From: Eledone cirrhosa
Lineage: Eukaryota
DNA length: 64,000 nucleotides
Reading direction: 5' to 3'
Assembly (NCBI GenBank): GCA_964016885.1
Contig: OZ024743.1
Location: 303,552,001 to 303,616,000 of the forward strand
Shown: in pieces, positions 20,500-57,340 of the stretch
How positions within the stretch are numbered: position 1 is the stretch's first letter
Layout of the letters: each line of letters opens with the position of its first letter
Made by a program: the position numbers and the translations under genes
Notes under the pieces: model-generated
Seen by the model: the letters and a program-made list of their open reading frames with translations, nothing else
The model's database searches: none
Told to the model about the DNA's origin: nothing

Positions 20500-20683
20500 G
20501 TAATAATAATAAAATTGAAGATTGAAATTCAAAGTATCGTCTTCCTGCCTTTCTCCGGTTGCAACGTTTTTTGAAATATCCAGTTCTGCGTTTACGGATT
20601 GACTTTGTTAGTTTCAGAAGATCCCGTTAAGGGTGAAAGCAGCGTTTCTTTGCTTAAACTTTAATCTGTTATTTTAATAAATT

Positions 20684-20685
<2 letters not shown>
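20500..20685 (+). repeat. Partial copy of the ~395-bp repeat family
   Basis: Matches 38070-38220 and 57375-57525. Confidence 0.8.
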
Positions 20686-20721
<36 letters not shown>

Positions 20722-21139: not shown

Positions 21140-21291
<152 letters not shown>

Positions 21292-21296
21292 CAGCT

Positions 21297-21388
<92 letters not shown>

Positions 21389-21458
21389 TTATGAAGAGAG
21401 AAGAAACATTTAGATATAATTAGTAATAAAATGTATCATAACTAAACTGTTCCTAGAT

Positions 21459-21548
21459 TCCTCGACTACGTAGTTTCGTGGCATAAACAAAAACAATACA
21501 TCATAAAGTAATAGAGTCCTTGCGAGGTCTGCCGACTTATCAAGAGGA
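21459..21548 (-). ncRNA. Type I hammerhead ribozyme, U3-A8 core variant (one per 593-bp unit)
   Basis: uccuc UUGAUAA gu(c)ggca [~46 nt] ugccac GAAA cuacguag UC gagga. Equivalent copies are in units 2 and 3 (unit 3 has a stem-II substitution). Confidence 0.75.
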
Positions 21549-23578
21549 TACCTCATTTTACTAGCTTCAAGAACGCGTCTACACGACGTGAGAAAGAATC
21601 CCAAAAGGCGGAGGGGCAGATATTCACGCGATATAACGGTCGAGAAACAGAGCTAAGCCTCTTATAACCCCGAATAAAATACCACGGAGGCGGAGGGGGT
21701 ATTTATATCGAAGCCGTAGAAGAGGTGGTGAAGGAGTCGAGAAGTATGAGTAATGGCAGCTTTCCAGCAGTCACCACACTTCAAAGATTACTCGACCAGA
21801 GGGAGTTATGAACAATATATTTAGAAACACACAGATACATGCGGACACACACATATACATGAATGCATCCACACCCAACCGTGAGTTAATGGTGCCAACC
21901 TTACCGATGTTGCTCAATGAATGACCGGGACAGACCAATCCGGTTGAATTAGACTGAACCAGTATCAGAGTTAAAAATACATTATGAAGAGAGAAGAAAC
22001 ATTTAGATATAATTAGTAATAAAATGTATCATACCTAAACTGTTCCTAGATTCCTCGACTACGTAGTTTCGTGGCATAAACAAAAACAATACATCATAAA
22101 GATATAGAGTCCTTGCGAGGTCTGCCGACTTATCAAGAGGGTACCTCATATTACTAGCTTCAAGAACGCGTCTACACGACGTGAGAAACAATCCCAAAAG
22201 GCGGAGGGGGAGAAAGTCACGCGATATAACGGTCGAGAAACAGAGCTAAGCCTCTTATAACCCCGAACAAAATACCACGGAGGCGGAGGGGTAATTATAT
22301 CGGAGCCGTAGAAGAGGTGGTGAAGGAGGCGAGAAGTATGAGTAATGGCAGCTTTCCAGCAGTCACCACACTTCAAAGATTACTCGACCAGAGGGAGTTA
22401 TGAACAATATATTTAGAAACACACAGATACATGCGGACACACACATATACATGAATGCATCCACACCCAACCGTGAGATAATGGTGCCAACCTTACCGAT
22501 GTTGCTCAATGAATGACCGGGAGAGACCAATCCGGTTGAATTAGACTGAACCAGTATCAGCGATAAAAATACATTATGAAGAGAGAAGAAACATTTAGAT
22601 ATAATTAGTAATAAAATGTATCATACCTAAACTGTTCCTAGATTCCTCGACTACGTAGTTTCGTGGGATAAACAAAAACAATACATGATAAAGATATAGA
22701 GTCCTTGCGAGGTCTGCCGACTTATCAAGAGGATACCTCATTTTACTAGCTTCAAGAACGTGTCTACACGACGTGAGAAAGAATCCCAAATGGCGGAGGG
22801 GGAGATAGTCACGCGATATAACGGTCGAGAAACAGAGCTAAGCCTCTTATAACCCCGAATAAAATGCCACGGAGGTGGAGGGGGTATTTATATCGAAGCC
22901 GTAGAAGAGGTGTTGAAGGAGTCGAGAAGTATGAGTAATGGCAGCTTTCCAGCAGTCACCACACTTCAAAGATTACTCGACCAGAGGGAGTTATGAACAA
23001 TATATTTAGAAACACACAGATACATGCGGACACACACATATACATGAATGCATCCACACCCAACCGTGAGTTAATGGTGCCAACCTTACCGATGTTGCTC
23101 AACGAATGACCGGGACAGACCAATCCGGTTGAATTAGACTGAACCAGTATCAGAGTTAAAAATACATTATGAAGAGAGAAGAAACATTTAGATATAATTA
23201 GTAATAAAATGTATCATACCTAAACTGTTCCTAGATTCCTCGACTACGTAGTTTCGTGGCATAAACATGTATATGTGTGTGTCCGCATGTATCTGTGTGT
23301 TTCTAAATATATTGTTCATAACTCCCTCTGGTCGAGTAATCTTTGAAGTGTGGTGACTGCTGGAAAGCTGCCATTACTCATACTTCTAGCCTCCTTCACC
23401 CCCTCTTCTACGGCTTCGATATAAATACCCCCTCCGCCCCCGTGGTATTTTCTTCGGGGTTATAAGAGGCTTAGCTCTGTTTCTCGACCGTTATATCGCG
23501 TGACTATCTCCCCCTCCGCCTTTTGCGATTCTTTCTCACGTCGTGTAGACGCGTTCTTGAAGCTAGTAACATGAGGCA

Positions 23579-23668
23579 TCCTCTTGATAAGTCGGCAGAC
23601 CTCGCAAGGACTCTATATCTTTATGATGTATTGTTTTTGTTTATGCCACGAAACTACGTAGTCGAGGA
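23579..23668 (+). ncRNA. Type I hammerhead ribozyme, U3-A8 variant, in the inverted unit
   Basis: TCCTC TTGATAA GTCGGCA...TGCCAC GAAA CTACGTAG TC GAGGA read directly on the plus strand. Confidence 0.75.
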
Positions 23669-23906
23669 ATCTAGGAACAGTTTAGGTATGATACATTTTA
23701 TTACTAATTATATCTAAATGTTTCTTATCTCTTCATAATGTATTTTTAACTCTGATACTGGTTCAGTCTATTTCAACCGGATTGGTCTGTCCCAGTCATT
23801 CATTGAGCAACATCGGTAAGGTTGGCACCATTAACTCACGGTTGGGTGTGGATGCATTCATGTATATGTGTGTGTCCGCATGTATCTGTGTGTTTCTAAA
23901 TATATT

Positions 23907-23961
<55 letters not shown>

Positions 23962-24024
23962 CAGAGATTCTTTGCTTAAACTTTAATCTGTTATTTTAAT
24001 AAATATATATATATATATATATAT

Positions 24025-27000
24025 ATTAGAAAGTGAGGTTTTTTTTAGAAAATGAAAAATAACCGAGGTGTCCTACACGAGTGAAAATATAAAAAAAAAA
24101 TTTAAATCGAAAATGCAACTGGAGTCTTGTTTAAAAAAATATATATATATTTATTTGGTTCCTTTACCGGTTTCACAGTTCTTCTGCTTTTCAAAAGTAG
24201 AGTTCAGATGGAGGGTCTGTGGGGTTTCTCACATCTGGTTGGTCTCTGAATGTCACTTGTTTTATATAGAAAAAAGTGGCTCGAAATGCCAGGTCTTTAG
24301 AGAAGTAATTTGATTGGTTGGTCAATAATTATAATAAATTTCGCGCCATTTCACGTTACAAAGTTCTTTAAACAATTGGGGGGGGGGGATGTCACATGTT
24401 GTTTTTTCATATATGAGTGTTTGAATTTCTTTTTATTTAAAAGAAGGGGGCTCACGAAGGCTTTTTTTTAATAAACGTAATTTGACTGGTTATAAATGAT
24501 GTTATGGCTGCCACGTGAACAAGTTTTCATTAAATTTTCGCGCCCTCATTTGGAAATCTATTCTGTAGCCTTTTTAGACAAGCAAAAGGGGCTCACGGAG
24601 GCTTTTTTTAAAATAAATGTAATTTGATTGGTTATAAATGAAATTATGGCTGTCACGTGAACAAGTTTTCATTCAATTTTCGCGCCCTTACTTGGAAATC
24701 TATTTTGTAGCCTTTTTAGAGAATTTTATGACAAGCAAAAGATAATGGTCAAGAGAAATAGGATGGGAGAATTGTTCTGGTTCAGTGAATATGGTTAGTT
24801 CGCTAGGATGTGAGAATTCAGATTTTCTATTGAAGTAAAGAAAATAAAGATGTGTATGTTTATTTTTGTGCTTGTGTGTGTGTGTGTGTGTGTGTGTATT
24901 AGAAGATGATTCTATTAGTAGAATGGGGGATGGCGTTGTGTGTATGTGTATATGGGTGTTATGTGTGTGTGGGAGTATGTTAAGATGGAGAGAATATATA
25001 TATTTTGTGTGCGTGTATATATGTGTATAGGAAAGTGATTCTATTAGTAGAAATGGGGGAGGGAGTTGTGTGTGTGTGGGCGTGAGGGTTGTTATGTGTG
25101 TGTATGGGTGTTATGTATGTGGGAGTATGGTTAGCATGTTAAGATGAAGAATATATATATATATATAGTGTGTGTAGGAAAATGATTCCTTTAGTAGGAA
25201 TATTTTTGAATGAACATATTTTCCTTATTTATTCGTATTTGTTCTGTTGTATTGTCAGCGCAAACGTATGTTAAGGTTTATTTAGTTCGGGTTTTTATTT
25301 TCTAAAGTAGCAGGTGTTATGTGTGTGTGTATGTGTCTGTTTGGATGGTTAGCATGTTATGGTGTTGACATAATGTATATTAAACCATATTTAATGCTGG
25401 TCTATATTTTTGAATAAACATATTTTCCTTATTTATTCGTATTTGTTCTGTTGTATTGTTAGCGCAAAGGTAAAATGGGAAGACTTGAAATTTGGGTGTC
25501 TTATTACTTGCGCATATGTCTAGATATGCGCCTAGTGGTATCTGTCTCGTGGTTGGATCTTGTAATTGTTGGCGATGAACTGTCATTCTGTTTCGAGTGT
25601 GAGTTTAGTTTGTCCTATATAATCTTCATTGCATCCTTTACATTTAATGGCATAAAGTAGATTTTTTGATGAGCAAGTGAAATGTTTTTTTACAGCAAAA
25701 TGTTGTCCTGATTTAAATGTATACGTGTTGCCTTCAAATAGGTGAGTGCAGGTTCCACAATTAGAGCGACCACATTTTTTGACAGTTGGTTGTGGGCTTG
25801 TGGTAGGTAATTTGGCATTAGTGAATAATGTTTTCAGTGATTTCGGTTGTCTTTTGCTTTTGATTATTTTGAGTGTTTCAAGCGCTTTTTTTCATTCTTG
25901 GGTTTTGATTTAGTAGTGGGATGTTCTTGTGTATAGTGTTGTAAGCTTCCGCATTTCTTGGGCTGTGTGTTGAGATATGTGATAGAATATTGGACGTACC
26001 TTGAATTTGTTTCTGTTTTCGTAATTCGTCAATGCCTATTGCTTTAGCCCTTTCTATTCCATTATTTATTAGAAATGCTGGGTACTCTCTTTCGAGTAGA
26101 ATTTCCTTTAATTCTTGAAGTCTTTTATTTGGCGTTTCATAATTGAAGACAATTGCGCAAATTCTACTTGCTAGGTTAAAAGGAATGTTCGTCTTCGTGT
26201 GCTTTGGATGGTTGGAGGTATTGTTTGGAATCTGTTGGTTTGTAGTGTATATCAGTTTCAATATTTGTGTCTTTTTTAAGATTAAGATGTCCAGAAATGG
26301 GAGTTGATCTTGGCTGTATTCCATTGTGAATTGTATGTGGTTATTGATGCCGTTTATTAAGTTTTTGAAATCCTTCAGTTGGTCGAGTGTGTGGGACGAA
26401 AGAATGAGACAATCATCCAAGTAGCATTTCCAATTCTCTGATAAATATTTGTGGAAGTTCAATCCGTATTTTGATTTGGACTGTTCATATATCTGGACTT
26501 CTAAGTATGCCATGACTAAGTTGGAATAAGTTGGAGCGGCTTTTGTACCCATTGCAGTCCCCGATATTTACTTCTAAGTACTGCCATCGAAATACAAATG
26601 TTGGTCTGTAAGATGGATTTTAATCCCTCGGTGATGAAGCTTTTTTCTATTCTGCCAGGTATCTCATTGGGATATTTCTCTAGCCATAATCCTATTGTTT
26701 CTAGTCCGTATGCTGTGGGATCGTTGTGTAGAGATTCACTACATCGAAAGACACAATAATAGTGTCCTTGTTGACACGTTGGGGGGGGGGGGTTAAGAGG
26801 TCCAGATTGCCTCTTACAAGGCTTAGTATGTGTTTGAGAATTGGTTTTAGTAGCATGTCTATAAAGTTGCTCCGTCTGTGTGTTTCACATTGTGGGCCCG
26901 CTACAATTTGTCTTAATTTAAGGTCTGTGGGGTATTGTGTGTTCACGTAGGCTAAGGTGGATTGTTTACAGGCATCGTTAATTATTTTACACTTGTGGAT

Positions 27001-28872
27001 CTTCGGAAGTCCGTAAAGGTTGCTGGTTTTGTATTCAAAATGTGTTAAATAATCGCGTTCCCTTTTAGTTAGGTCTTCCTGGTATCGATAAATCTGTGTT
27101 TAATCTGGTCATTGTTTTTGATTGCTGGTAGTGTTTTACTCTTTCATAGTAATTAGTATTTTGTAAGAGAGAGAACATAGAATGTTTATGTTTTTCAGCC
27201 TCCATAATGACAACAGCACTTCCCATGTCCGCTTCCTTAATTATAATGTCCGTATTGTTTTTTAGTTCTTGGATAATATCCCATTCCCGTGGACTCGTGT
27301 TGGGTTTGGGTTTAGGTTGCGGTAGTTCATGGTATGGGAAAGTAGCTATGTGGTCACACAATTTGTTCAGAACTCTGTTTCTACATTTTGTTGGGTTGTA
27401 GCTGCTTTTATTCCGTACAATTGATTCGTCGTTATTCTCCCTGTCAAAGAATACCTCTGTGACACGTAATTTTCTACAGAAGTGTGAGATATCATCATTT
27501 ATCTCATTGGGGTTAGAGTATTGTGGTATTGGTGTGAATTTCAGTCCTTTAGAGAGAATTTTTACTTGTTGGGCTGAGAGGCTTGTATTTGAAAGGTTGG
27601 TTATTTTCCGTTTTTCAAAATCGGTTTGTGCCACCGGGTGCCGTGGGTCCTGTAGCCCTGGTCTAAAAAATGATTTTAGTTGTGTGGTCTTGTATAGAAG
27701 TTTCGGACGTATTGAGGTTCGGTTTGTTGATAGTCCGCGTTGTATATTTTGTTCCTTTGTGTGGATTGGGATCTACGGTTTTGGAACAGGCTCTGTGTCG
27801 GCAGAGGTCTACGATTTTGGAATAGGTTTGTGTGGGTTGTGATCTGCGGATCGGGTCCTGTCAGGTGTTGGGGGATCTTCGGTTTTTGTTATTAGGGTTA
27901 TAGTCTTATCTATGGGTTCTGGGATTATCGTTATAGTTTTGCTGGGGGTATGTTGGACGTTTTGTTACTTTTTTTTGTTATTTGTTGTGGATGTTTTGTT
28001 ACTTTTTTTGTTATTTGTTGTGCATGTGGTGTGTGAGTTTTAGTTTGTTTTAAAAATGGGTTACTTGTATGTTGTTCATTTTTGAAGTCAATTTCGTAGT
28101 TGTTGAACCAGGAGGCGTTTTATTCCCATGGCTGGAGGGATGTTCGTTCTTCATCCTCACAGTTGTCTTTCCATAGTTTTAAGGTTTTTTTGTAGAGTAG
28201 GCCTTCAGAGTGCTTTGAGATTTCTGTGTCCATCTGTTGGTGTCCATCTATTGGGGACTTGAATTTTTCTTCGTTGGAGTTGGCTCTTAATCGCAAAGGT
28301 TCTATTTCTATTTTAATTTTTTCTAACGGCATCTTTTCCCTAAGTCTTTGTTGGTTTTCTGGTTCATTCGAGTTTTTTGGGGAAGATGATTGGGGTAGAG
28401 TTTAGCCACTTTTCATATATGTCTGCCTTGCCATTATTTTTTAGGAGATTCCAAAAGGCGAATTTGCGGCTGTGAGCTTTTGAGTCCATATATTGATTAG
28501 GGTGTTTTTCACTGAGTGGACATCTCGGAGATTGGGTTCTAATGGTTATTCCAGCTTTCGGGGCATTGCTGTTTCAATGGTTTGGATTAGTTTAGTTAAT
28601 GCTGGGGTTCTTTTTTACAGATGTGTATTTGGTCCACTTTGTTGGTCAAAATTGAGAGTTTAGAGGAAATCTCTTTGAATTCATTTAAGATGTCCTGGTT
28701 CAGTGAGTTGTTGTTTTGTTGAGACTTTGGTGGCATTTTCGGTCTTCGTGTGGTGGGTATGTATTAGAAAGTGAGTTTTTTTTTACAAAATGAAAAATAA
28801 CCGAGGTGTCCTACACGAGTGAAAGTATAAAGAAAGAAAAATGAAATGGAAAATGCAACTGGAGTCCTATTT

Positions 28873-31489: not shown

Positions 31490-34400
31490 AAGAAACAAAA
31501 AACTGTTAAACATTGTGTACAACAACAATCTAATAAAAACACAAGGGCCTAACTTCACCCAGGCAGGGGATTTCCCCCACCTCAAAATGATTAAGGCCCC
31601 ACAGGACACCTATAAAACTTTAAAAAACAATTTTAAAGAGGACGTGGGTCCCCCCTGCGTCGGGCCCATTAACCGCGTCCTCCTAAAAAACTATCCCACC
31701 CCATCCCCAAACACCCACACAACTCCAAGCTCCCCAACCACACAACACACTGATGCCCCCACACTTCCACAAACCACCACCCCACCCAACAACCCATCCC
31801 CCACCCTAATGGAAATTGTGCAGCCCGATACCCGGGACGCAGAGAGGTAAGTGCCTTTTCTCTTCACCACCAACATGGCTATGCTAAGAGTAGGCTGTTT
31901 AAATGCGCGTGGCCTGGGCTCAACTTGGAAGCAAGCAATGCTTCTAAATGACCTCAGGTCACAACGTATAGATGTGATGGTTATTTGCGAGGCCCGGATC
32001 AGCAACGTGCGACAGCTGGCCCCCACCTTTGATGACTTTGAGATGCACGCATCTCTCTGTCAGCCCGGAGGTGGGGGTGGAGTTGTCGTTCTGCTGCAAA
32101 AACATCTGGGTCTCGCAACACAGATGGTACATATGGACCCGGAGGGTCGACTAGTGGTTCTGGACCTTGGCAGTGGTAAAGGCGGAGCGTTTAGGTTGGT
32201 AGCCGCCTACGGCCCTTTCGGGTCAATGCGGCCGGACTTCTTCCATCGTCTGGAGACTTTTCTAGGGACGTCCCGCTCCTTGCTATTAGTGGGGGACTGG
32301 AATGGTATCCTAGATGCACGCTGGGACTACGTAGGGGCCTGCCCCGATAGAGAGGGGTGTAATAGCCTCAAAGGGTTAATCGGTCGATTTGACCTGGCCG
32401 ATAGATATCGACTAGATTTTCCGACTGCGCCAACCTGGACTTGGGCAAATCGTAGCGGATCATCTAGGTCGTACCTAGATAGGTTCTTAGTTAGAATTAA
32501 GGATAAGGACTTTTTAAGTTGTCCAAAAATGCGCATGGTTGGCTATTCAGACCACAAATTAGTGACCTGCATGGTCAACCTTGACAGAACTCATAGACAG
32601 GGCCCCGGTTACTGGAAGCTCAACTTGTCCTTGCCGGCAAGTAGAGCCTACAGGAATCGGATTAGTACGTTAGTTAAGGAACGGTTGACTGGAGCGATCG
32701 TCAACAGCAGGTGGTGGGTATCTCTAAAGAGAGAGATTAGAGTAGTCTCGATAGAATTTAGTAAGGTTCTAGCTGCGGATAGGAATAGGAAGGAAAGGGA
32801 GCTAATAGATAGAGTAGAAGAGGCAATTAGAAGCGGCGACGTGGCCAGAGTGCTAGCGTCGAGAACGGCTTTGAGCCAGTTTTTCGACGCGAAGCACGAA
32901 GGCTGCGTTGTCCGAAGTAAAATACGTGCTCTAGGGAACGAGGGGACCAAAGCTGTTAGCTGGGCCCGCGTGACAGAGGCCAACAGTGGAACTAAATCCA
33001 CCATCCGGTCTTTGCGAGACCTGGATGGACGGGCGATTCTTGAGCCTAAGCAGATGTGTGAGGCCTTTCAAAGGCACTTTGCCCGACTGTTCGGGAGGGG
33101 CGGGGAGCCGGTTGGGAACGTGGACTTCGGTCCATACCTCAACGGCCTGCCACGCCTCTCGGACAGGGAGGCGAAGTCCTGCGAGGAACCGATTTCGGCC
33201 GCTGAGATAGAGGACGTGCTGAGCCAATGCGGCAAACGCAAATCCCCGGGTCTCGATGGTCTTCCTTACGAATTATATCTAGCTATGCCGGACTTGTTCC
33301 CCGATCTCCTCGAGGCGGTCTACTGCAACTGGCAACAGAACGGGAGAATTCCCTGTACTGTGACCAAGGGCGTAGTCACGCTAGTGAGGAAGGACGAGAA
33401 CAAGGGGGACGAAATAAGTAACTTCAGGCCCATAACTCTGCTAAATACAGAGTTACAGATTTTGGCCAAGGTGCTAGCAAAGAGGTTGGCGCTTGTCGTG
33501 GGCAACCTGGTGGGAGATGTGCAGACATGCGCTATCCCGTCCAGGTCCATCCATGACAACCTCCACCTCATGCGATACATCATAGAGAGGGTTGGGAACG
33601 AACCCGGCTTTGGTGGGGCTCTGATCAACTTGGATCAAACTAAGGCGTTCGATAGGGTCGACCATGGTTACCTGGATGCGGTGCTAGCGGCGGCAGGCTT
33701 CGGACCCGTTTTCACTGCTATGCACAGCAGCCGCATCTGCTCTAGGGTCAAGGTGAACGGCTACCTCTCGGAGCCGTTCAAAATCGCGCGGTCCATCCGA
33801 CAAGGGTGCCCTCTCTCCTCCCTTCTGTATGTGTTGACTCTCGAGCCACTACTGCGGAAGTTGGAGTTGTTGCAGGGCATCCCTTTGGAACCGGGATTGC
33901 GGAAAGCGGTGTCGGCCTACGCCGATGACGTGACAGTAATGGTGTCGACGGCCTCCGAAATCGAGGCGGTCGGCACCTTACTGGAGGAGTACGAAAAGTT
34001 CACAGGGGCTAAGCTGAACCGGGACAAGACGATCGGTTTGCAACTCGGCACGTGGAGGGGCAGACCGATGCCCTCCGATGGCGTCGTCGGACGCTGGACG
34101 GAGGGCCCGGTGAAGTTGCTCGGGGTCTGGTTCGGACCGGACCTCCAGGTGGAGAAAAACTGGGCGGAGGTTACAAACAGGGTGTTTGCACTGACCCAGA
34201 AGTGGGCCAGTTGCAAACTATCCCTGAAAGGTCGGGCGGAGGTGGCGAACACCTACATAGCGTCCGTCATCTACTACCGCCTGACCGTAGTGCCCTGCCC
34301 AAGGGAAACCCTCACCAAGATGGAGCGCGCGCTCTTCCAATTCCTTTGGAAGAGGCGGGCTCCTATGGTGAGGAGATCCATCTGCTGTCAACACCCTTCG

Positions 34401-35561
34401 AAAGGAGGGCTGGGGATGCCGTGGCTAATGATGCGTAAACACGCATTAAGGCTACGGCACCTCTACGTATTCCTCACCGGACAACCGGTGTGGGCCTCGT
34501 TTGTGAGACGAACCTTTCCCAGACTCGTCTCACTCACCGAGCTGCAATCCTGGGTCAAGCAAAGACCGAGAAAACTGGGCGCCTGGCACACTGAGTGTGC
34601 CCAGGCGCTCACCGCCCTCTGGCAGGCGGATCCGGTTATCAGTGGAGACTCCACCGCAACATTCTATAGAGGGCTGGTACGCAGCAGGTGCGACGACGCC
34701 CTCGGAGAAGCCCTAGACATGGAGGAGGACGAACTGGCCAGCCTGTTCGGTAGGACATTCAGCCCGGGACCTATGGACAACTTCCAGAAGTCCCTGGCCT
34801 GGCAGTGCTACCGAGGGGCTTTACCCGTTCGAGAAAGGCTCTACAGACACGGGCGCCCGGGTAGGGACCCCGCCAAAAAGATCTGTCCCAGATGCGTGTG
34901 CGACGAGGAAACCGTTGCACACGCATTGGTACACTGCTCGGGCGCAGCCGATCTGTGGGGCTATGTCGAACAACTGCTGTCAAGGGTGGGACCGATCCGG
35001 TTGACCAACGAGTCTATTGTAATGATCAAGCCGCCTCCCCCCTTCAAAGATGAAGCAGAGGCGGTGTTTCTGTGCGTAATAGCCATGGCGAAAGAGGTTG
35101 TATGGTGGACGCGTCTGAAAGGACTGAGGTCAGGCACCTTTCTCTCTGGCCAACAACTGGTCCGTTTCTTCCGATATCATTTCGGAAGAAGGATCAGGAT
35201 GGAGAGAGAGGTGCTGCACCCCAGCCGTTTCTATGAAAGATGGGTGAAAGTGGCGAGAATGGCCCGTGTGAATGGGCCTTCACTCTACATCAGACTATAG
35301 GTGAGGAAGATGAAAGACCAAGGGAGCACCCCTTCTCTGTGCTCCTGAGGAGAAGGGTTGCACACTTTTTTCGGGGGTGTGTGCGACCCCCCAAGGCGCC
35401 TCCTCTCTATTGAGGATTTTGTTAAAAATTTTATTTTTTGTGATATCTTATTTTATTTTTATATTTTGTTATTGCCTCCTCCTTATTGAGGACGCCTTTT
35501 TGTGTAAACTCCCCCCTTTGTACTTGTCCCACTTTTGATGCCCTAGTGGCAAATAAAAGAA
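31490..35561 (+). mobile_element. Tx1/L1-clade non-LTR retrotransposon copy 3, 5'-truncated in ORF1, with intact ORF2
   Basis: Lies between (TATC)n tracts (about 31395-31437 and 35562-35640). ORF1 tail ends at TAA 31850; the 3' UTR ends CCCTAGTGGCAAATAAAAGAA. Confidence 0.93.
31875..35300 (+). CDS. ORF2 polyprotein: apurinic-like endonuclease, reverse transcriptase, CCHC zinc finger (about 1141 aa)
   Basis: Uninterrupted ORF. ATG 31875 is in the CAACATG context shared with copies 1 and 2. Motifs: NARG, GDWN, YLDR, SDH, KSPGLDG, FRPITLLN, DQTKAFDRV, QGCPLS, YADD, CPRC..EETVAHALVHC. Confidence 0.93.
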   Translation: MAMLRVGCLNARGLGSTWKQAMLLNDLRSQRIDVMVICEARISNVRQLAPTFDDFEMHASLCQPGGGGGVVVLLQKHLGLATQMVHMDPEGRLVVLDLGSGKGGAFRLVAAYGPFGSMRPDFFHRLETFLGTSRSLLLVGDWNGILDARWDYVGACPDREGCNSLKGLIGRFDLADRYRLDFPTAPTWTWANRSGSSRSYLDRFLVRIKDKDFLSCPKMRMVGYSDHKLVTCMVNLDRTHRQGPGYWKLNLSLPASRAYRNRISTLVKERLTGAIVNSRWWVSLKREIRVVSIEFSKVLAADRNRKERELIDRVEEAIRSGDVARVLASRTALSQFFDAKHEGCVVRSKIRALGNEGTKAVSWARVTEANSGTKSTIRSLRDLDGRAILEPKQMCEAFQRHFARLFGRGGEPVGNVDFGPYLNGLPRLSDREAKSCEEPISAAEIEDVLSQCGKRKSPGLDGLPYELYLAMPDLFPDLLEAVYCNWQQNGRIPCTVTKGVVTLVRKDENKGDEISNFRPITLLNTELQILAKVLAKRLALVVGNLVGDVQTCAIPSRSIHDNLHLMRYIIERVGNEPGFGGALINLDQTKAFDRVDHGYLDAVLAAAGFGPVFTAMHSSRICSRVKVNGYLSEPFKIARSIRQGCPLSSLLYVLTLEPLLRKLELLQGIPLEPGLRKAVSAYADDVTVMVSTASEIEAVGTLLEEYEKFTGAKLNRDKTIGLQLGTWRGRPMPSDGVVGRWTEGPVKLLGVWFGPDLQVEKNWAEVTNRVFALTQKWASCKLSLKGRAEVANTYIASVIYYRLTVVPCPRETLTKMERALFQFLWKRRAPMVRRSICCQHPSKGGLGMPWLMMRKHALRLRHLYVFLTGQPVWASFVRRTFPRLVSLTELQSWVKQRPRKLGAWHTECAQALTALWQADPVISGDSTATFYRGLVRSRCDDALGEALDMEEDELASLFGRTFSPGPMDNFQKSLAWQCYRGALPVRERLYRHGRPGRDPAKKICPRCVCDEETVAHALVHCSGAADLWGYVEQLLSRVGPIRLTNESIVMIKPPPPFKDEAEAVFLCVIAMAKEVVWWTRLKGLRSGTFLSGQQLVRFFRYHFGRRIRMEREVLHPSRFYERWVKVARMARVNGPSLYIRL

Positions 35562-46781: not shown

Positions 46782-46840
<59 letters not shown>

Positions 46841-46843
<3 letters not shown>

Positions 46844-49800
46844 GAGAGGTATATAGATTGTTTTAGCAAGAAGCTAACGGCATTCTATAACATATATGCG
46901 ACTATAACGTCAAGATGGGAAAAGTAGTTAACGAAAGATTTAGGAAAAATAACTCAAACTCATCTCAAAAGAGAATCAGGATACAAATTCATCCACAGAA
47001 TTTAGTAAAATCCAGGGAAAAATCTATACACCTTTAACTCATGATAAAACAAAGTTTGAAACACTTATCCTTCAATTTGGAAAAACATCAAATGCTCTGT
47101 ATAGTCTTAAAAGAATATTTCATGAAAACTTTCAGTGGAGATGGTCACGGTTGGAATTTCATTCATCAGCAGAGCTCAACAGAAAACCAGGGCTCTCACA
47201 GTAATATAGTCCGAAAAAGGGAATTCTAAAACTGGCTAGTTCGCCTTCATGTGTATTTATGAGAAAGCACATGTGGAAAAAAACGGGGCTAGTGACGTCA
47301 GGATGGAAGTGAATGTTTATTTACAAGAAATAGCAGTCAAATACATTCTGAAAAAAAAAACTCTACAAAGGAGTTCAGCAAAATAGCAATAATTATCACA
47401 GTTTTTATGAAAAAAACCGGGATTAGTCAGAGATATTTTAAGCACTCTGGGAAAAGAATCCGAGTATAAATATAAATGAGAGGTATAGAGATTGTTTTAG
47501 CAAAAATTAACGGCATTCTATAACATATATGCGACTATAACGTCAAGATGGGAAAAGTAGTTAACGAAAGATTTAGGAAAAATAACTCAAACTCATCTCA
47601 AAAGAGAATCAGGATACAAATTCATCCACAGAATTTAGTAAAATCCATGGAAAAATCTATTGACCTTTAACTCATGATAAAACAAAGTTTGAAACACTTA
47701 TCCTTCAATTTGGAATAACATCAAATGCTCTGTATAGTCTTAAAAGACTATTTCATGAAAACTTTCAGTGGAGATGGTCACGGTTGGAATTTCATTCATC
47801 AGCAGAGCTCAACAGAATACCAGGGCTCTGACAGTAATATAGTCCGAAAAAGGGAATTCTAAAACTGGCTAGTTCGCCTTCATGTGTATTTATGAAAAAG
47901 CACATGAGGAAAAAAACGGGGCTAGTGACGTCAGGATGGAAGTGAATGTTTATTTACAAGAAATAGCAGTCAAATACATTCTGAAAAAAAACTCTACAAA
48001 GGAGTTCAGCAAAATAGCAATGATTATCACAGTTTTTATGAAAAAAACCGGGATTAGTCACAGATAGTTTAATCACTCTAGGAAAAGAATCCGAGTATAA
48101 ATATAAATTAGAGGTATAGAGATTGTTTTAGCAAGAAGCTAACGGCATTCTATAACATATATGCAGCTATAACGTCAAGATGGGAAAAGTAGTTAACGAA
48201 AGATTTAGGAAAAATAACTCAAACTCATCTCAAAAGAGAATCAGGATACAAATCCATCCACAGAATTTAGTAAAATCCAGGGAAAAATCTATAGACCTTT
48301 AACTCATGATAAAACAAAGTTTGAAACCCTTATCCTTCAATTTGGAATAACATCAGATGCTCTGTATAGTCTTAAAATACTATTTCATGAAAACTTTCAG
48401 TGGAGATCGTCACGGTTGGAATTTCATTCATCAGCAGAGCTCAACAGAAAACCAGGGCTCTCACAGTAATATAGTCCGAAAAAGGGAATTCTAACACTGG
48501 CTAGTTCGCCTTCATGTGTATTTATGAAAAAGCACATGAGGAAAAAAACGGGGCTGGTGACGTCAGGATGGAAGTGAATGTTTATTTACAAGAAATAGCA
48601 GTCAAATACATTCTGAAAAAAAACTCTACAAAGGAGTTCAGCAAAATAGCAATAATTATCACAGTTTTTATGAAAAAAACCGGGATTAGTCACAGATAGT
48701 TTAATCACTCTAGGAAAAGAATCCGAGTATAAATATAAATTAGAGGTATAGAGATTGTTTTAGCAAGAAGCTAACGGCATTCTATAACATATATGCAGCT
48801 ATAACGTCAAGATGGGAAAAGTAGTTAACGAAAGATTTAGGAAAAATAACTCAAACTCATCTCAAAAGAGAATCAGGATACAAATCCATCCACAGAATTT
48901 AGTAAAATCCAGGGAAAAATCTATAGACCTTTAACTCATGATAAAACAAAGTTTGAAACCCTTATCCTTCAATTTGGAATAACATCAGATGCTCTGTATA
49001 GTCTTAAAATACTATTTCATGAAAACTTTCAGTGGAGATCGTCACGGTTGGAATTTCATTCATCAGCAGAGCTCAACAGAAAACCAGGGCTCTCACAGTA
49101 ATATAGTCCGAAAAAGGGAATTCTAACACTGGCTAGTTCGCCTTCATGTGTATTTATGAAAAAGCACATGAGGAAAAAAACGGGGCTGGTGACGTCAGGA
49201 TGGAAGTGAATGTTTATTTACAAGAAATAGCAGTCAAATACATTCTGAAAAAAAACTCTACAAAGGAGTTCAGCAAAATAGCAATAATTATCACAGTTTT
49301 TATGAAAAAAACCGGGATTAGTCACAGATAGTTTAAGCACTCTAGGAAAAGAATCCGAGTATAAATATAAATGAGAGTTATAGAGATTGTTTTAGCAAGA
49401 AGCTAACGGCATTCTATAACATATATGCGACTATAACGTCAAGATGGGAAAAGTAGTTAACGAAAGATTTAGGAAAAATAACTCAAACTCCTCTCAAAAG
49501 AGAATCAGGATACAAATTCATCCACAGAATTTAGTAAAATCCAGGGAAAAATCTATAGACCTTTAACTCATGATAAAACAAAGTTTGAAACCCTTATCCT
49601 TCAATTTGGAATAACATCAGATGCTCTGTATAGTCTTAAAAGAGTATTTCATGAAAACTTTCAGTGGAGATGGTCACGGTTGGAATTTCATTCATCAGCA
49701 GAGCTCAACAGAATACCAGGGCTCTGACAGTAATATAGTCCGAAAAAGGGAATTCTAAATCTGGCTAGTTCGCCTTCATGTGTATTTATGAAAAAGCACA

Positions 49801-52800
49801 TGAGGAAAAAAACGGGGCTAGTGACGTCAGGATGGAAGTGAATGTTTATTTACAAGAAATAGCAGTCAAATACATTCTGAAAAAAAACTCTACAAAGGAG
49901 TTCAGCAAAATAGCAATAATTATCACAGTTTTTATGAAAAAAACCGGAATTAGTCACAGATAGTTTAAGCACTCTAGGAAAAGAATCCGAGTATAAATAT
50001 AAATGAGAGGTATAGAGATTGTTTTAGCAAGAAGCTAACGGCATTCTATAACATATATGCGACTATAACGTCAAGACGGGAAACGTAGTTAACGAAAGAT
50101 TTAGGAAAAATAACTCAATCTCATCCCAAAAGAGAATCAGGATACAAATTCATCCACAGAATTTAGTAAAATCCAGGGAAAAATCTATAGACCTTTAACT
50201 CATCATAAAACAAAGTTTGAAACAATTATCCTTCAATTTGGAATAACATCAAATGCTCTGTATAGTCTTAAAAGACTATTTCATGAAAACTTTCAGTGGA
50301 GATGGTCACGGTTGGAATTTCATTCATCAGCAGAGCTCAACAGAAAACCAGGGCTCTCACAGTAATATAGTCCGAAAAAGGGAATTCTAAAACTGGCTAG
50401 TTCGCCTTCATGTGTATTTATGAAAAAGCACATCAGGAAAAAAACGGGGCTAGTGACGTCAGGATGGAAGTGAATGTTTATTTACAAGAAATAGCAGTCA
50501 AATACATTCTGAAAAAAAACTCTACAAAGGAGTTCAGCAAAATAGCAATGATTATCACAGTTTTTATGAAAAAAACCGGGATTAGTGACAGATAGTTTAA
50601 TCACTCTAGGAAAAGAATCCGAGTATAAATATAAATGAGAGGTATAGAGATTGTTTTAGCAAGAAGCTAACGGCATTCTATAACATATATGCGACTATAA
50701 CGTCAAGATGGGAAAAGTAGTTAACGAAAGATTTAGGAAAAATAACTCAAACTCATCTCAAAAGAGAATCAGGATACAAATTCATCCACAGAATTTAGTA
50801 AAATCCAGGGAAAAATCTATAGACCATTAACTCATCATAAAACAAAGTTTGAAACACTTATCCTTCAATTTGGAATAACATCAAATGCTCTGTATAGTCT
50901 TAAAAGACTATTTCATGAAAACTTTCAGTGGAGATGGTCACGGTTGGAATTTCATTCATCAGCAGAGCTCAACAGAAAACCAGGGCTCTCACAGTAATAT
51001 AGTCCGAAAAAGGGAATTCTAAAACTGGCTAGTTCGCCTTCATGTGTATTTCTGAAAAAGCACATGAGGATAAAAACGGGGCTAGTGACGTCAGGATGGA
51101 AGTGAATGTTTATTTACAAGAAATAGCAGTCAAATACATTCTGAAAAAAAACTCTACAAAGGAGTTCAGCAAAATAGCAATAATTATCACAGTTTTTATG
51201 AAAAAAACCGGGATTAGTCACAGATAGTTTAAGCACTCTAGGAAAAGAATCCGAGTATAAATATAAATGAGAGGTATAGAGATTGTTTTAGCAAGAAGCT
51301 AACGGCATTCTATAACATATATGCGACTATAACGTCAAGATGGGAAAAGTAGTTAACGAAAGATTTAGGAAAAATAACTCAAACTCATCTCAAAACAGAA
51401 TCAGGATACAAATTCATCCACAGAATTTAGTAAAATCCAGGGAAAAATCTATAGACCTTTAACTCATGATAAAACAATATTTGAAACACTTATCCTTCAA
51501 TTTGGAATAACATCAAATGCTCTGTATAGTCTTAAAATACTATTTCATTTAAACTTTCAGTGGAGATGGTCACGTTTGGAATTTCATTCATCAGCAGAGC
51601 TCAACAGAAAACCAGGGCACTCACAGTAATATAGTCCGAAAAAGGGAATTCTAAAACTGGCTAGTTCGCCTTCATGTGTATTTATGAAAAAGCACATGAG
51701 GAAAAAAACGGGGCTAGTGACGTCAGGATGGAAGTGAATGTTTATTTACAAGAAATAGCAGTCAAATACATTCTGAAAAAAAACTCTACAAAGGAGTTCA
51801 GGAAAAATAGCAATGATTATCACAGTTTTTATGAAAAAAACCGGCATTAGTCACAGATAGTTTAATCACTCTAGGAAAAGAATCCGAGTATAAATATAAA
51901 TGAGAGGTATAGAGATTGTTTTAGCAAGAAGCTAACGGCATTCTATAACATATATGCGACTATAACGTCAAGATGGGAAAAGTAGTTAACGAAAGATTTA
52001 GGAAAAATAACTCAAACTCATCTCAAAAGAGAATCAGGATACAAATTCATCCACAGAATTTAGTAAAATCCAGGGAAAAATCTATAGACCTTTAACTCAT
52101 GATAAAACAAAGTTTGAAACACTTATCCTTCAATTTGGAATAACATCAAATGCTCTGTATAGTCTTAAAAGACTATTTCATGAAAACTTTCAGTGGAGAT
52201 GGTCACGGTTGGAATTTCATTCATCAGCAGAGCTCAACAGAAAACCAGGGCTCTCACAGTAATATAGTCCGAAAAAGGGAATTCTAAAACTGGCTAGTTC
52301 GCCTTCATGTGTATTTATGAAAAAGCACAAGAGGAAAAAAACGGGGCTGGTGACGTCAGGATGGAAGTGAATGTTTATTTACAAGAAATAGCAGTCAAAT
52401 ACATTCTGAAAAAAAACTCTACCTAGGAGTTCAGCAAAATAGCAATAATTATCACAGTTTTTATGAAAAAAACCGGGATTAGTCACAGATAGTTTAATCA
52501 CTCTAGGAAAAGAATCCGAGTATAAATATAAATGAGAGGTATAGAGATTGTTTTAGCAAGAAGCTAACGGCATTCTATAACATATATGCGACTATAACGT
52601 CAAGATGGGAAAAGTAGTTAACGAAAGATTTAGGAAAAATAACTCAAACTCATCTCAAAAGAGAATCAGGATACAAATTCATCCACAGAATTTAGTAAAA
52701 TCCAGGGAAAAATCTATAGACCTTTAACTCATGATAAAACAAAGTTTGAAACACTTATCCTTCAATTTGGAATAACATCAAATGCTCTGTATAGTCTTAA

Positions 52801-54862
52801 AAGACTATTTCATGAAAACTTTCAGTGGAGATGGTCACGGTTGGAATTTCATTCATCAGCAGAGCTCAACAGAAAACCAGGGCTATCACAGTAATATAGT
52901 CCGAAAAAGGGAATTCTAAAACTGGCTAGTTCGCCTTCATGTGTATTTATGAAAAAGCACAAGAGGAAAAAAACGGGGCTGGTGACGTCAGGATGGAAGT
53001 GAATGTTTATTTACAAGAAATAGCAGTCAAATACATTCTGAAAAAAAACTCTACAAAGGAGTTCAGCAAAATAGCAATAATTATCACAGTTTTTATGAAA
53101 AAAACCGGGATTAGTCACAGATAGTTTAAGCACTCTAGGAAAAGAATCCGAGTATAAATATAAATGAGAGGTATAGAGATTGTTTTAGCAAGAAGCTAAC
53201 GGCATTCTATAACATATATGCGACTATAACGTCAAGATGGGGAAAGTAGTTAACGAAAGATTTAGGAAAAATAACTCAAACTCCTCTCAAAAGAGAATCA
53301 GGATACAAATTCATCCACAGAATTTAGTAAAATCCAGGGAAAAATCTATAGACCTTTAACTCATGATAAAACAAAGTTTGAAACCCTTATCCTTCAATTT
53401 GGAATAACATCAGATGCTCTGTATAGTCTTAAAAGACTATTTCATGAAAACTTTCAGTGGAGATGGTCACGGTTGGAATTTCATTCATCAGCAGAGCTCA
53501 ACAGAAAACCAGGGCTCTCACAGTAATATAGTCCGAAAAAGGGAATTCTAAAACTGGCTAGTTCGCCTTCATGTGTATTTATGAAAAAGCACATGAGGAA
53601 AAAAAATGGGGCTAGTGACGTCAGGATGGAAGTGAATGTTTATTTACAAGAAATAGAGTCAAATACATTCTGAAAAAAAAACTCTACAAAGGAGTTCAGC
53701 AAAATAGCAATAATTATCACAGTTTTTATGAAAAAAACCGGGATTAGTCACAGATAGTTTAAGCACTCTAGGAAAAGAATCATCCGAGTATAAATATAAA
53801 TGAGAGGTATAGAGATTGTTTTAGCAAGAAGCTAACGGCATTCTATAACATATATGCGACTATAACGTCAAGATGGGAAAAGTAGTTAACGAAAGATTTA
53901 GGAAAAATAACTCAAACTCATCTCAAAAGAGAATCAGGATACAAATTCATCCACAGAATTTAGTAAAATCCCAGGAAAAATCTATAGACCTTTAATTCAT
54001 GATAAAACAATATTTGAAACACTTATCCTTCAATTTGGAATAACATCAAATGCTCTGTATAGTCTTAAAATACTATTTCATGAAAACTTTCAGTGGAGAT
54101 GGTCACGGTTGGAATTTCATTCATCAGCAGAGCTCAACAGAAAACCAGGGCACTCACAGTAATATAGTCCGAAAAAGGGAATTCTAAAACTGGCTAGTTC
54201 GCCTTCATGTGTATTTATGTAAAAGCACACGAGGAAAAAAAACGGAGCTAGTGACGTCAGGATGGAAGTGAATGTTTATTTACAAGAAATAGCAGTCAAA
54301 TACATTCTGAAATAAAAACTCTACAAAGGAGTTCAGCAAAATAGCAATAATTATCACAGATTTTATGAAAAAAACCGGGATTAGTCACAGATAGTTTAAG
54401 CACTCTAGGAAAAGAATCCGAGTATAAATATAAATGAGAGGTATAGAGATTGTTTTAGCAAGAAGCTAACGGCATTCTATAACATATATGCGACTATAAC
54501 GTCAAGATGGGAAAAGTAGTTAACGAAAGATTTAGGAAAAATAACTCAAACTCATCTCAAAAGAGAATCAGGATACAAATTCATCCACAGAATTTAGTAA
54601 AATCCAGGGAAAAATCTATAGACCTTTAACTCATGATAAAACAAAGTTTGAAACACTTATCCTTCAATTTGGAATAACATCAAATCCTCTGTATAGTCTT
54701 AAAAGACTATTTCATAAAAACTTTCAGTGGAGATGGTCACGGTTGGAATTTCATTCATCAGCAGAGCTCAACAGAAAACCAGGGCTCTCACAGTAATATA
54801 GTCCGAAAAAGGGAATTCTAAATCTGGCTAGTTCGCCTTCATGTGTATTTATGAAAAAGCAC
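46841..54862. repeat. 632-bp-unit tandem array, about 12.7 units, bounded by (TA)n; one hammerhead per unit
   Basis: The marker ATGTGTATTT recurs at about 47249, 47882, 48514, 49146, 49778, 50410, 51042, 51674, 52307, 52939, 53571, 54207 and 54841. Confidence 0.97.
47727..47808 (-). ncRNA. Type I hammerhead ribozyme (representative of 13 copies)
   Basis: gcucug CUGAUGA augaaa [29 nt] uuucau GAAA uagucu-uuua-agacua UA cagagc; three 6-bp stems, canonical core, AUA cleavage triplet. Confidence 0.85.
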
Positions 54863-55224: not shown

Positions 55225-57340
55225 TTTGCTAAAACACTCAGTGGTTAAGGATTTCGAAGTTGATGTCATTCTCAATGCCCGTAAGTCGGTGATTAATTTG
55301 AACGACTCTATTTGGATTAAAAAATCCTATAGTACCCCATTCTACGTGAGTATGGGCGCCAGCGATTCTGCGGAGGTTACTGATCTTATCGGCCTTTTCC
55401 TTCTTTTCTCCATCAAGGACGAATTCCCCAACGCGAGTGGTGGTTTGTACCGTGATGTTGGTCTTTTGACCATGACTAAGTGCGGACCTCGTGCTTGCGA
55501 CAGGTTCAGAAAAGAACTCACAGCCTTCTTTAAAGTCTTCAACCTCTCTATACATGTTGAGGCCAATCTCTCGGTCGTTAATTACCACGACGTTACCCTC
55601 AATTTATCGAATGTATTACCCGTATAGAAAGCCGAATGATACGCTTAATTACATAATTAAGCATTCCAACCATCCTGGTAGCATAACCAAAACCTGGTAA
55701 GAAACGTTTCGTTGAAGCTTTCCCGTCTATCTACTAACGAGCATATTTTCAACGACCATTCCACTTATTACAATGAAGCTCTTGCTCGGAGAGGATATGT
55801 CGATAAGGTAGCATATACAGAGTACGAAAATAGACCTAGAAGAAATAGGTCCCGTCGCATTTGTTGGTATAACCCACCGTATAATATGGAGGTGGCCACA
55901 CCATTAGCTAAGAACTTTCTTTCCCTTATTACGAAGCATTTTCCCCCTGCACATAAATATAGTAATTTTTTTTATAGAAATACTATTAAAATGTCTTACT
56001 CTACGACTCCTAACCTTGCACATAACATCACAGCTTCAAATTTAGCTAAACTACCTAGCCGTAGGAACACGTGCAACCCTGAAGTTAGTACTAACTCTAA
56101 TTGTAGGATACGGGTTGATTGCCCCCTATCCGGGAAATGTCTCTCTAATAACATTGTCTACACATGTAAGGTTGAAACACCCACGTCCCGTAGGGCCTAC
56201 ATATGGTTAACCGCCAATAGATTCAAGCAGCGTCTTTACATGCATACCCATTCTTTTTGTTGCCCTCTAAGAAGGAATATGACGTCACTTACAGCTTATA
56301 TCTGGAGTCTAAAAGACAACCACACCCAATATAAGTTACCCTGAGAGATCCTAGCTAGGGCTAGATCGTATAACGGAAATAAAAGACCATATTACCTCTG
56401 CGCCGCTGAGGCCCTGGAAAAACTCTACGCCACAGACCAGATCTTAAACAAAAAATCTGAGGCAATTTCGGCTTGTAAACATAAATTGCACAAAACTTTC
56501 CTGTAATACAGCCCCACATTATACCCTAACGGATAGTACGATCTATACGTGGATATGTTAGTCTTCATGTGGTAGCTAAGTATATGTTATGTTTATAAAA
56601 TTACTTATTTGCATAGGTAAGTATATATTACCTCTATGTTTTGTGAAGGTATGTATACTTTCTCGTACGTATATTTGATTGTATATGTTATGGCGTATAA
56701 TTTTATATATTCTGGTACATATGGTTTGGTTATGTGTATACGGGAGTTTAGCGTCTGTGTGAGCATGCAGGTTCGTACGTATGTAGGGTGTGTGTATATG
56801 TGTACTTCATGTTTTGCTTAACCTACGTATCCGAACATTTGTGTATTTAGATGTAGGTATGTGTGTGCGCTTGTTATATACGTATTTATTTATTTATATA
56901 CGTTTATTTATTTATTTGTATACACGCACACACACACACACACACACATATTTATATGTGCGTGGTTTTGTATACCTATGGCAAGTGTTTTCGCGTATGC
57001 TTGTGTACGTACGTATTTGCATGTGTGTATGGATTTATTTAATTTCTTTACCTATGTATTGTAATTTTTTTACTTTATTCTTAACTCTGAAGCGGAGATT
57101 ATTTCGGTTTCCTAGTTAGAATGTTAGTCTACGACTTCAGCTATACCATTTACGTGGTTTTGTCTTGGCTCCACATATGCCGTATTATCTTCGTTTTTTC
57201 CTTTCATTGCCAGAGAACGTCTCTATGAACCACCTAAGAGAACATTAGTCTACGACTTCTTTTATACCATAAACGTGGTTCTGTCTTTGCGTGTAAATGT
57301 TTTTCACCGCTCCTATTAATGGCGTATTATATTCGTTTTT
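55222..57340 (+). mobile_element. Naiad-type PLE, second subfamily, 5'-truncated
   Basis: MGASDSAEVTDLIGL, GLYRDVG, HDVTLNL, SNHP, WYNPPYN, NCRIRVDCPLSGKCLSNNIVY. The ORF ends at about 56505 and is followed by a UTR. Confidence 0.85.

Follow-up and report, generated by a model that had tools for sequence, protein, structure and literature searches.

Organization of the array at the locus

The window, a stretch of 64,000 nucleotides from Eledone cirrhosa, contains an array of a 593-bp unit in which an arm of 3.17 units and an inverted arm of 1.09 units are arranged head to head within (TA)n. The longer arm, arm B, extends from 21389 to 23267 with periods of 593, 592 and 593 bp for its direct units; its RNA sense is on the minus strand, its 3' end is a fixed end (site B, +74 to +80 from the cleavage site) located at 21389 and its 5' end is truncated at 23267. 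Arm A extends from 23266 to 23909 with its RNA sense on the plus strand and finishes at a different fixed 3' end (site A, +236 to +246); the segment from site B to site A forms a one-sided 'tail' with conserved hairpins (23740-23909, plus strand). The two arms overlap by 2 nt at the 5'-5' junction (23266-23267) and are flanked by (TA)n target tracts on the left (21142-21388) and on the right (23910-23959). A descriptor scan placed the hammerhead on the minus strand in the direct units and on the plus strand in the inverted arm; the arms thus point outward from the 5'-5' junction. The coordinates and unit counts given by an earlier reading of this DNA from the sequence only (about 3.2 direct and about 1.1 inverted units, in (TA)n) hold.

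Four complete ribozymes and one 3' half are present at the locus. Arm B carries copies 1 to 3 on the minus strand, at 21459-21548 (type I, U3-A8), 22052-22141 and 22644-22733, and the 3' half at its truncated 5' end (23237-23267, also minus). Copy 4, on the plus strand of arm A, spans 23579-23668: stem I is formed by 23579-23583 and 23664-23668, the core by 23584-23590 with U3 at 23584 and A8 at 23589, and stem II by 23591-23597 and 23644-23649, with 46 nt (23598-23643) between the strands of stem II; GAAA occupies 23650-23653 and cleavage is predicted after 23663. With its core boxes, GAAA and UH cleavage site, the ribozyme is a predicted type I hammerhead. Its short stem III is a 10-nt palindrome, ACUACGUAGU (23653-23662, A15.1 and U16.1 counted in), predicted to form a dimer helix. 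The sequence-only reading had attributed one consensus motif, with U3-A8 in place of C3-G8, to every complete unit. All four complete copies do contain the U3-A8 hammerhead, whereas units 2 and 3 carry private stem changes (a U>C at the distal end of stem I in copy 2 and a G>C with loss of one stem II pair in copy 3).

The units of this insertion are 2-4% apart, mostly through private changes, and 34 sites are discordant, nearly all of them with rare alleles; this unusually high divergence may result from age or from assembly error. Upstream of the hammerhead, each unit contains two GC-box-like tracts and TATA-like words (23425-23525 on the plus strand in arm A), a possible internal promoter. 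A different array is present at 46840-54860 on the minus strand. It comprises 13 units of about 632 bp, and the hammerhead in each of them is of the canonical C3-G8 type, with a stem II region of 41 nt and a stem III that is longer. The two arrays had been described as unrelated, and no significant BLASTN similarity was indeed found between them (best E 0.25). An Rfam scan of the whole window at gathering thresholds returned no family and missed both hammerhead arrays.

A young dispersed family with a fixed U3-A8 core

The repeat is a young dispersed family of thousands of copies. An 18-mer from the 3' half of the hammerhead has 7,696 exact matches in the 3.0-Gb genome while the reversed-pattern control has none, so the motif does not occur by chance; a 22-mer from the 5' half with U3-A8 has 5,981 exact matches genome-wide. 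In the fetched loci, units measured from cleavage site to cleavage site are 584-607 nt long (n=104). The three sense-strand frames of the unit are full of stops, with no ORF, and the GC content is below 50% (0.425 at 22001-23000). An older subfamily, about 82% identical, keeps an identical core.

U3-A8 was present in 284 of 287 sampled copies. With the same flanks, position 3 was changed in 13 copies genome-wide (A8 being kept in all) and position 8 in 12, and no C3-G8 copy was found; one copy, in L184, has C3 together with A8. The check that had been suggested for genomic copies, covariation at positions 3 and 8, therefore gave none within the family, U3-A8 being fixed (5,981 matches compared to 25 single changes). 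The single changes, about 0.2% per site, are read as post-insertion mutations and so do not refute function. A protein-coding PLE family of the same genome is also U3-A8. Similar hammerhead variants may be described in Lunse et al. 2016. Natural occurrence and in vitro activity of U3-A8 hammerheads have already been reported (PMC3088659), as have about 1,300 Schistosoma PLE hammerhead motifs with U3-A8 (PMC4209133). The U3-A8 core is already published for PLE hammerheads and adds little as novelty; the supplements to PMC4209133, PMC7229834 and the 2026 bioRxiv preprint (10.64898/2026.07.22.740005) may include similar variants.

Constraint on the ribozyme fold

Positions were scored as polymorphic when the minor allele exceeded 3% in 410 aligned pieces from 161 stretches. 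None of the 43 core and stem positions was polymorphic compared to 92 of 479 elsewhere (Fisher P 2e-4), and the same test on 325 pieces from end-selected loci gave 0/43 and 84/479 (P 7e-4). The sole variable base in stem II is a bulged C. This difference indicates that the subfamily masters have been under selection for the ribozyme fold, and the proposal that the hammerhead is a functional RNA is supported by this constraint at the RNA level. In 62 copies, 98.7%, 96.2% and 98.4% of cells are paired in stems I, II and III, respectively; stem I is open. A distal stem I helix of 5 bp was also considered; it is kept in 91% of cells, yet its core-proximal register differs between subfamilies and it is not claimed.

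The region between the stem II strands had been taken for a loop of about 46 nt. The length is correct, but most of the region is a conserved hairpin (stem IIb, 23605-23639 on the plus strand in copy 4, about 13-14 pairs), recovered in the MFE fold and in the consensus fold. A/G changes in this hairpin face a U tract and pairing is kept (93% of cells paired in 62 copies); one position is paired in the older subfamily only. For stem III, the palindrome duplex was estimated at -12.9 kcal/mol while the monomer stem III contributes just 0.7. Cleavage as a dimer, put forward from the palindrome, is consequently plausible and fits the published model, although these energies do not prove it. The stem III loop is invariant, with four positions, too few to prove selection on the palindrome. 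Beyond the ribozyme, the sense monomer folded as a circle has a z of -4.3, compared to -0.04 for the antisense (40 shuffles), and four helices show double-sided changes in 5-9 of 35 copies.

Insertion ends and the template

Fixed ends were found in 259 of 283 arms (127 at site A and 132 at site B), and 256 of the 259 run straight into (TA)n; most of the loci had been chosen by a TA junction, required at just one of their ends. The older subfamily ends at the same two sites. A link to PLEs had been suggested from the stem III palindrome; it is borne out by the fixed 3' ends, the 5' truncation, the adjoining inverted truncated copy and the (TA)n targets, and an inverted 5'-truncated copy, a one-sided tail and a (TA)n bias are given as PLE hallmarks in PMC8557442. 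The tandem context of the ribozymes is real, but one insertion event explains it better than a satellite does.

Units of the same arm differed by a median of 0.35% (158 pairs) and units of the two arms of one insertion by 0.26% (123 pairs), compared to 2.93% between insertions. Twenty-seven of 241 private alleles were common to all covering units, 12 of these across both arms. These comparisons suggest that a single monomer sequence is usually the source of both arms, which is the outcome expected with a circle. The nearest unit in another insertion is also close (median 0.51%), so that identity within insertions cannot by itself separate a circle from a multimer, and at least 3 discordant common alleles in 13 of 124 multi-piece insertions count against a single template. 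Truncation was examined by a hazard analysis of 5' ends in 250 arms, after 6 duplicate or edge-touching arms had been dropped from 256. There was no excess at +1 to +10 of the cleavage site (3/250 compared to 5.4 expected); a cluster just short of the cleavage site, seen in the first 60 loci, was gone at 250 arms (17 compared to 16.3 expected at +1 to +30). The longest arms comprise about 5 nearly identical units (L111, L183, L232). Combined, the lack of excess at the cleavage site and the arms of up to about 5 units indicate that a cut linear monomer was not the usual template.

The same lack of a truncation peak fits an uncut RNA as well as a circle. The repeat could then be derived from a pLTR, mobilised by a PLE and copied from multimeric read-through RNA in its uncut form, with no circle and with a hammerhead that is slow, protein-dependent or dispensable. 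For PAc, the main insertion substrate is described as unprocessed RNA, insertion proceeds without hammerhead cleavage and the hammerhead needs protein (PMC11167929); in the preprint, 8 of 9 predicted Xenopus retrozyme dimers were uncleaved in vitro and 1 was cleaved. Some of our insertions are mosaic, and a hairpin between the upstream GAGG and CCUC competes with stem I in the ribozyme with a probability of 0.03-0.6. The constraint on ribozyme positions across subfamilies argues against this explanation, and arms of up to about 5 near-identical units would require long homogeneous source arrays; we consider it somewhat unlikely.

The clear case of a mosaic is L200:2563-5659, a two-armed insertion with one arm that has, over part of its length, the alleles of another subfamily. 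Its structure suggests a template switch or later gene conversion.

Pairing of the two arms

In the 161 stretches, 98 distinct head-to-head junctions were identified. Sites A and B were paired in 84 of them, no junction paired A with A or B with B, and in the remaining 14 an arm was rearranged or cut. The A+B pairs came from loci selected by A ends (51), by B ends (23) or by the ribozyme (9), plus the window. The tail was present on one side only in 84/84 intact pairs, with a length of about 160-170 nt. Internal initiation at two sites downstream of the hammerhead has been described for PAc in vitro, the two strands being alike in start site (PMC11167929); the strict A+B pairing points to a strand difference in start site in vivo. 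Neither a strict pairing of two start sites nor two-armed retrozyme insertions appeared in the literature searched, in which subscription journals were mostly not included.

Fold-back self-priming of one cDNA or of an antisense template, a mechanism put forward for rotifer Penelope (PMC3846280), could also generate the inverted arm without any need to prime on the two target strands. A few junctions have the equal 5' positions of true fold-backs (L094, L137, L091, L122, L149). However, most junctions connect unrelated 5' positions, and fold-back alone does not predict outer fixed sense 3' ends that abut (TA)n and differ in all 84 pairs. Such an origin of the second arm is doubtful in our view, and priming from both target strands is retained below.

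A predicted stem I-II pseudoknot

The loop II strand ACCUCR (23599-23604 on the plus strand in copy 4) is complementary to a strand located just upstream of stem I, UGAGGU in most copies and with C as last base in copy 4 (23572-23577, plus). In the resulting 6-bp pseudoknot, 96.2% of cells are paired and five of the six pairs are without covariation. The terminal pair is U-G in 248 copies, U-A in 19 and C-G in 13, with no mismatch in 280, and it is kept in 62/62 aligned copies. Covariation over the whole structure is weak: pair changes on both sides were reached by 251 of 500 shuffles and the score by 18 of 500. Stem I-stem II pseudoknots are reported in about 40% of hammerhead representatives (PMC3088659).

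The loop II strand includes the CCUCG for which the sequence-only reading had proposed another partner, CGAGG across the cleavage site, in an inhibitory fold that would keep the monomer inactive until dimer formation. Four of the five pairs of that helix are kept in nearly all copies; this conservation is accounted for by the duplication of the GAGG and CCUC tracts, and the same duplication, two tracts of each, permits a swapped, inactive fold. Its terminal pair, on the other hand, is lost in 19 of 293 sampled copies and in 30 of 62 copies of an alignment enriched in the older subfamily, while the pseudoknot pair at the same base is maintained by three pair types, and the helix has an ensemble probability of 0.00-0.04 in three natural copies. 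The upstream GAGG:CCUC hairpin is a stronger competitor of stem I. The choice between the two helices is decided by one variable pair; on the modelled folds, loop II CCUCG more likely pairs with the upstream UGAGGU than across the cleavage site, and we regard the inhibitory helix as improbable.

Candidate enzymes and neighbouring PLEs

The unit was considered as an autonomous PLE and this was rejected, an RT plus GIY-YIG ORF being absent from it. Among 20 stretches surrounding long GIY-YIG ORFs, no coding element with the unit in common was detected; 30 other GIY-YIG loci matched it in simple repeats only, and 30 loci of a second PLE family had no significant similarity to the unit; the 80 PLE-protein loci examined are a small part of over 10,000 GIY-YIG candidates. 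No PLE protein similarity was detected in the 400 nt upstream of 66 solo arms, and Pfam assigned no family to four PLE-like fragments of the window. A coding Neptune-like U3-A8 PLE family, with a 938-aa RT plus GIY-YIG ORF in L294 and a minimal U3-A8 hammerhead, also ends in (TA)n at two places, near +76 and +142, and is for this reason a candidate partner. The similarity between its ends and those of the unit is not above that of shuffles (P 0.22-0.62). The L294 ORF contains a Cys-rich linker of the kind described for Neptune/Nematis.

Several PLE-type families share these (TA)n targets. A decayed copy of the L294-type PLE lies at 24028-28180 on the minus strand; it is interrupted by several frame breaks, and most of its protein is 80-90% identical. 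A minimal U3-A8 hammerhead is present in the 3' region of this copy, near 24160-24200, and about 139 nt beyond the cleavage site the copy ends in (TA)n. An abundant, presumably Hydra-like, PLE family is represented at 55682-56880 and in L315-L343. Its 3' region is long, its two (TA)n ends are separated by about 75 nt, and the first of them is immediately preceded by a hammerhead-like stretch unmatched by the descriptor. Short 3'-end stubs of this family are present in (TA)n beside the array, at 23960-24003 and about 20640-20690. The window also holds an apparently intact LINE at 31851-35300, with an open frame of 1,149 aa and endonuclease, RT and zinc-binding Pfam domains.

Proposed origin of the insertions

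Taken as a whole, the array is quite probably a single insertion of a young non-coding non-LTR retrozyme, likely copied into (TA)n by a PLE RT-endonuclease acting in trans. Read-through transcripts would be cut by the predicted U3-A8 hammerhead, a step we hold to be likely and in which the stem I-II pseudoknot probably helps, as does the pairing of stem III palindromes in a dimer; the monomers would then be circularised. The enzyme would nick both (TA)n strands, prime one at site A and the other at site B, and run 0.05 to about 5 turns round the template, for which a circle is the rather likely form and an uncut multimer, from a young homogeneous array, an appreciable alternative; the two cDNA 5' ends would finally be joined. 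One long and one short end are always paired; the likely reason is that a single RNA template is copied into each of the two DNA strands by a borrowed retrotransposon enzyme. An ordinary satellite grown by unequal crossing-over with the ribozyme as a decayed relic is very improbable: the units are tandem and satellite-type growth is proposed for retrozyme arrays in the preprint, but these arrays are short and dispersed with common fixed ends and targets, the fixed ends refute it at the locus and the ribozyme positions are constrained.

More tentatively, a pair of PLE enzymes might prime both nicked strands on one circular RNA at two obligatorily different sites and roll round it, while the duplicated GAGG and CCUC tracts of a pseudoknotted, dimer-type U3-A8 hammerhead exchange pairing partners, one arrangement giving an inactive fold and the other an active one. 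If true, this would explain the inverted-repeat-plus-tail structure of PLEs, and the genome would provide evidence that animal retrozymes undergo rolling-circle reverse transcription. In PMC8557442 the origin of head-to-head PLE insertions with a tail at one end is described as unresolved, and PMC4209133 puts forward the rolling-circle copying of retrozyme circles as a proposal, not as a demonstrated process. The value of the family is mechanistic: with thousands of young copies, two well separated start sites and a strict pairing, the process becomes countable and assayable. The ribozyme likewise offers a natural test of a pseudoknot and a dimer helix acting jointly with a U3-A8 core.

Comparison with known systems

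Judged by its sequence, the unit has the features of animal non-LTR retrozymes that were examined and inserts like a PLE. As in the retrozymes described in PMC7229834 and the 2026 preprint, non-coding tandem units contain one type I hammerhead each, GC is under 50%, copies are in the thousands, the sense strand is structured and PLEs co-occur. The unit length of 593 nt is above the 170-400 given in PMC7229834 and within the 51-972 of the preprint. The U3-A8 core, the long stem II hairpin and the predicted pseudoknot distinguish the present unit, for which circles and cleavage are predicted. Two-armed inverted insertions with two fixed ends are not part of the main retrozyme descriptions of Cervera and de la Pena 2020 and Li, Clavereau and Pollet 2026; the latter argue that non-LTR retrozymes derive from PLEs.

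Insertions of EN+ PLEs (PMC8557442, PMC3846280, PMC11167929) share with those of the unit the fixed 3' ends downstream of the hammerhead, the 5' truncation, the partial tandem, the head-to-head inversion, the tail at one end and the (TA)n targets. They differ in that the tail is about 160-170 nt here compared to 30-40 in EN+ PLEs and in that the unit is without an ORF. The strict A+B pairing also contrasts with PAc in vitro, for which no start-site difference between strands is described (PMC11167929).

With respect to the ribozyme, the hammerheads of the Schistosoma Cercyon PLE (Cervera and de la Pena 2014, PMC4209133) likewise have U3-A8, a short palindromic stem III and a proposed dimer cleavage. 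The ribozyme reported here is larger (about 90 nt between stem I ends) and belongs to a non-coding unit, whereas that of Cercyon is in the pLTR of an ORF. In the pseudoknotted hammerheads of Perreault et al. (2011, PMC3088659), a pairing of 4-6 bp between stems I and II takes the place of a loop-loop contact, and several carry U3-A8. In contrast to these, the predicted pseudoknot strand of the present ribozyme stands beside a long extra stem II hairpin and occurs together with a stem III of the dimer type.
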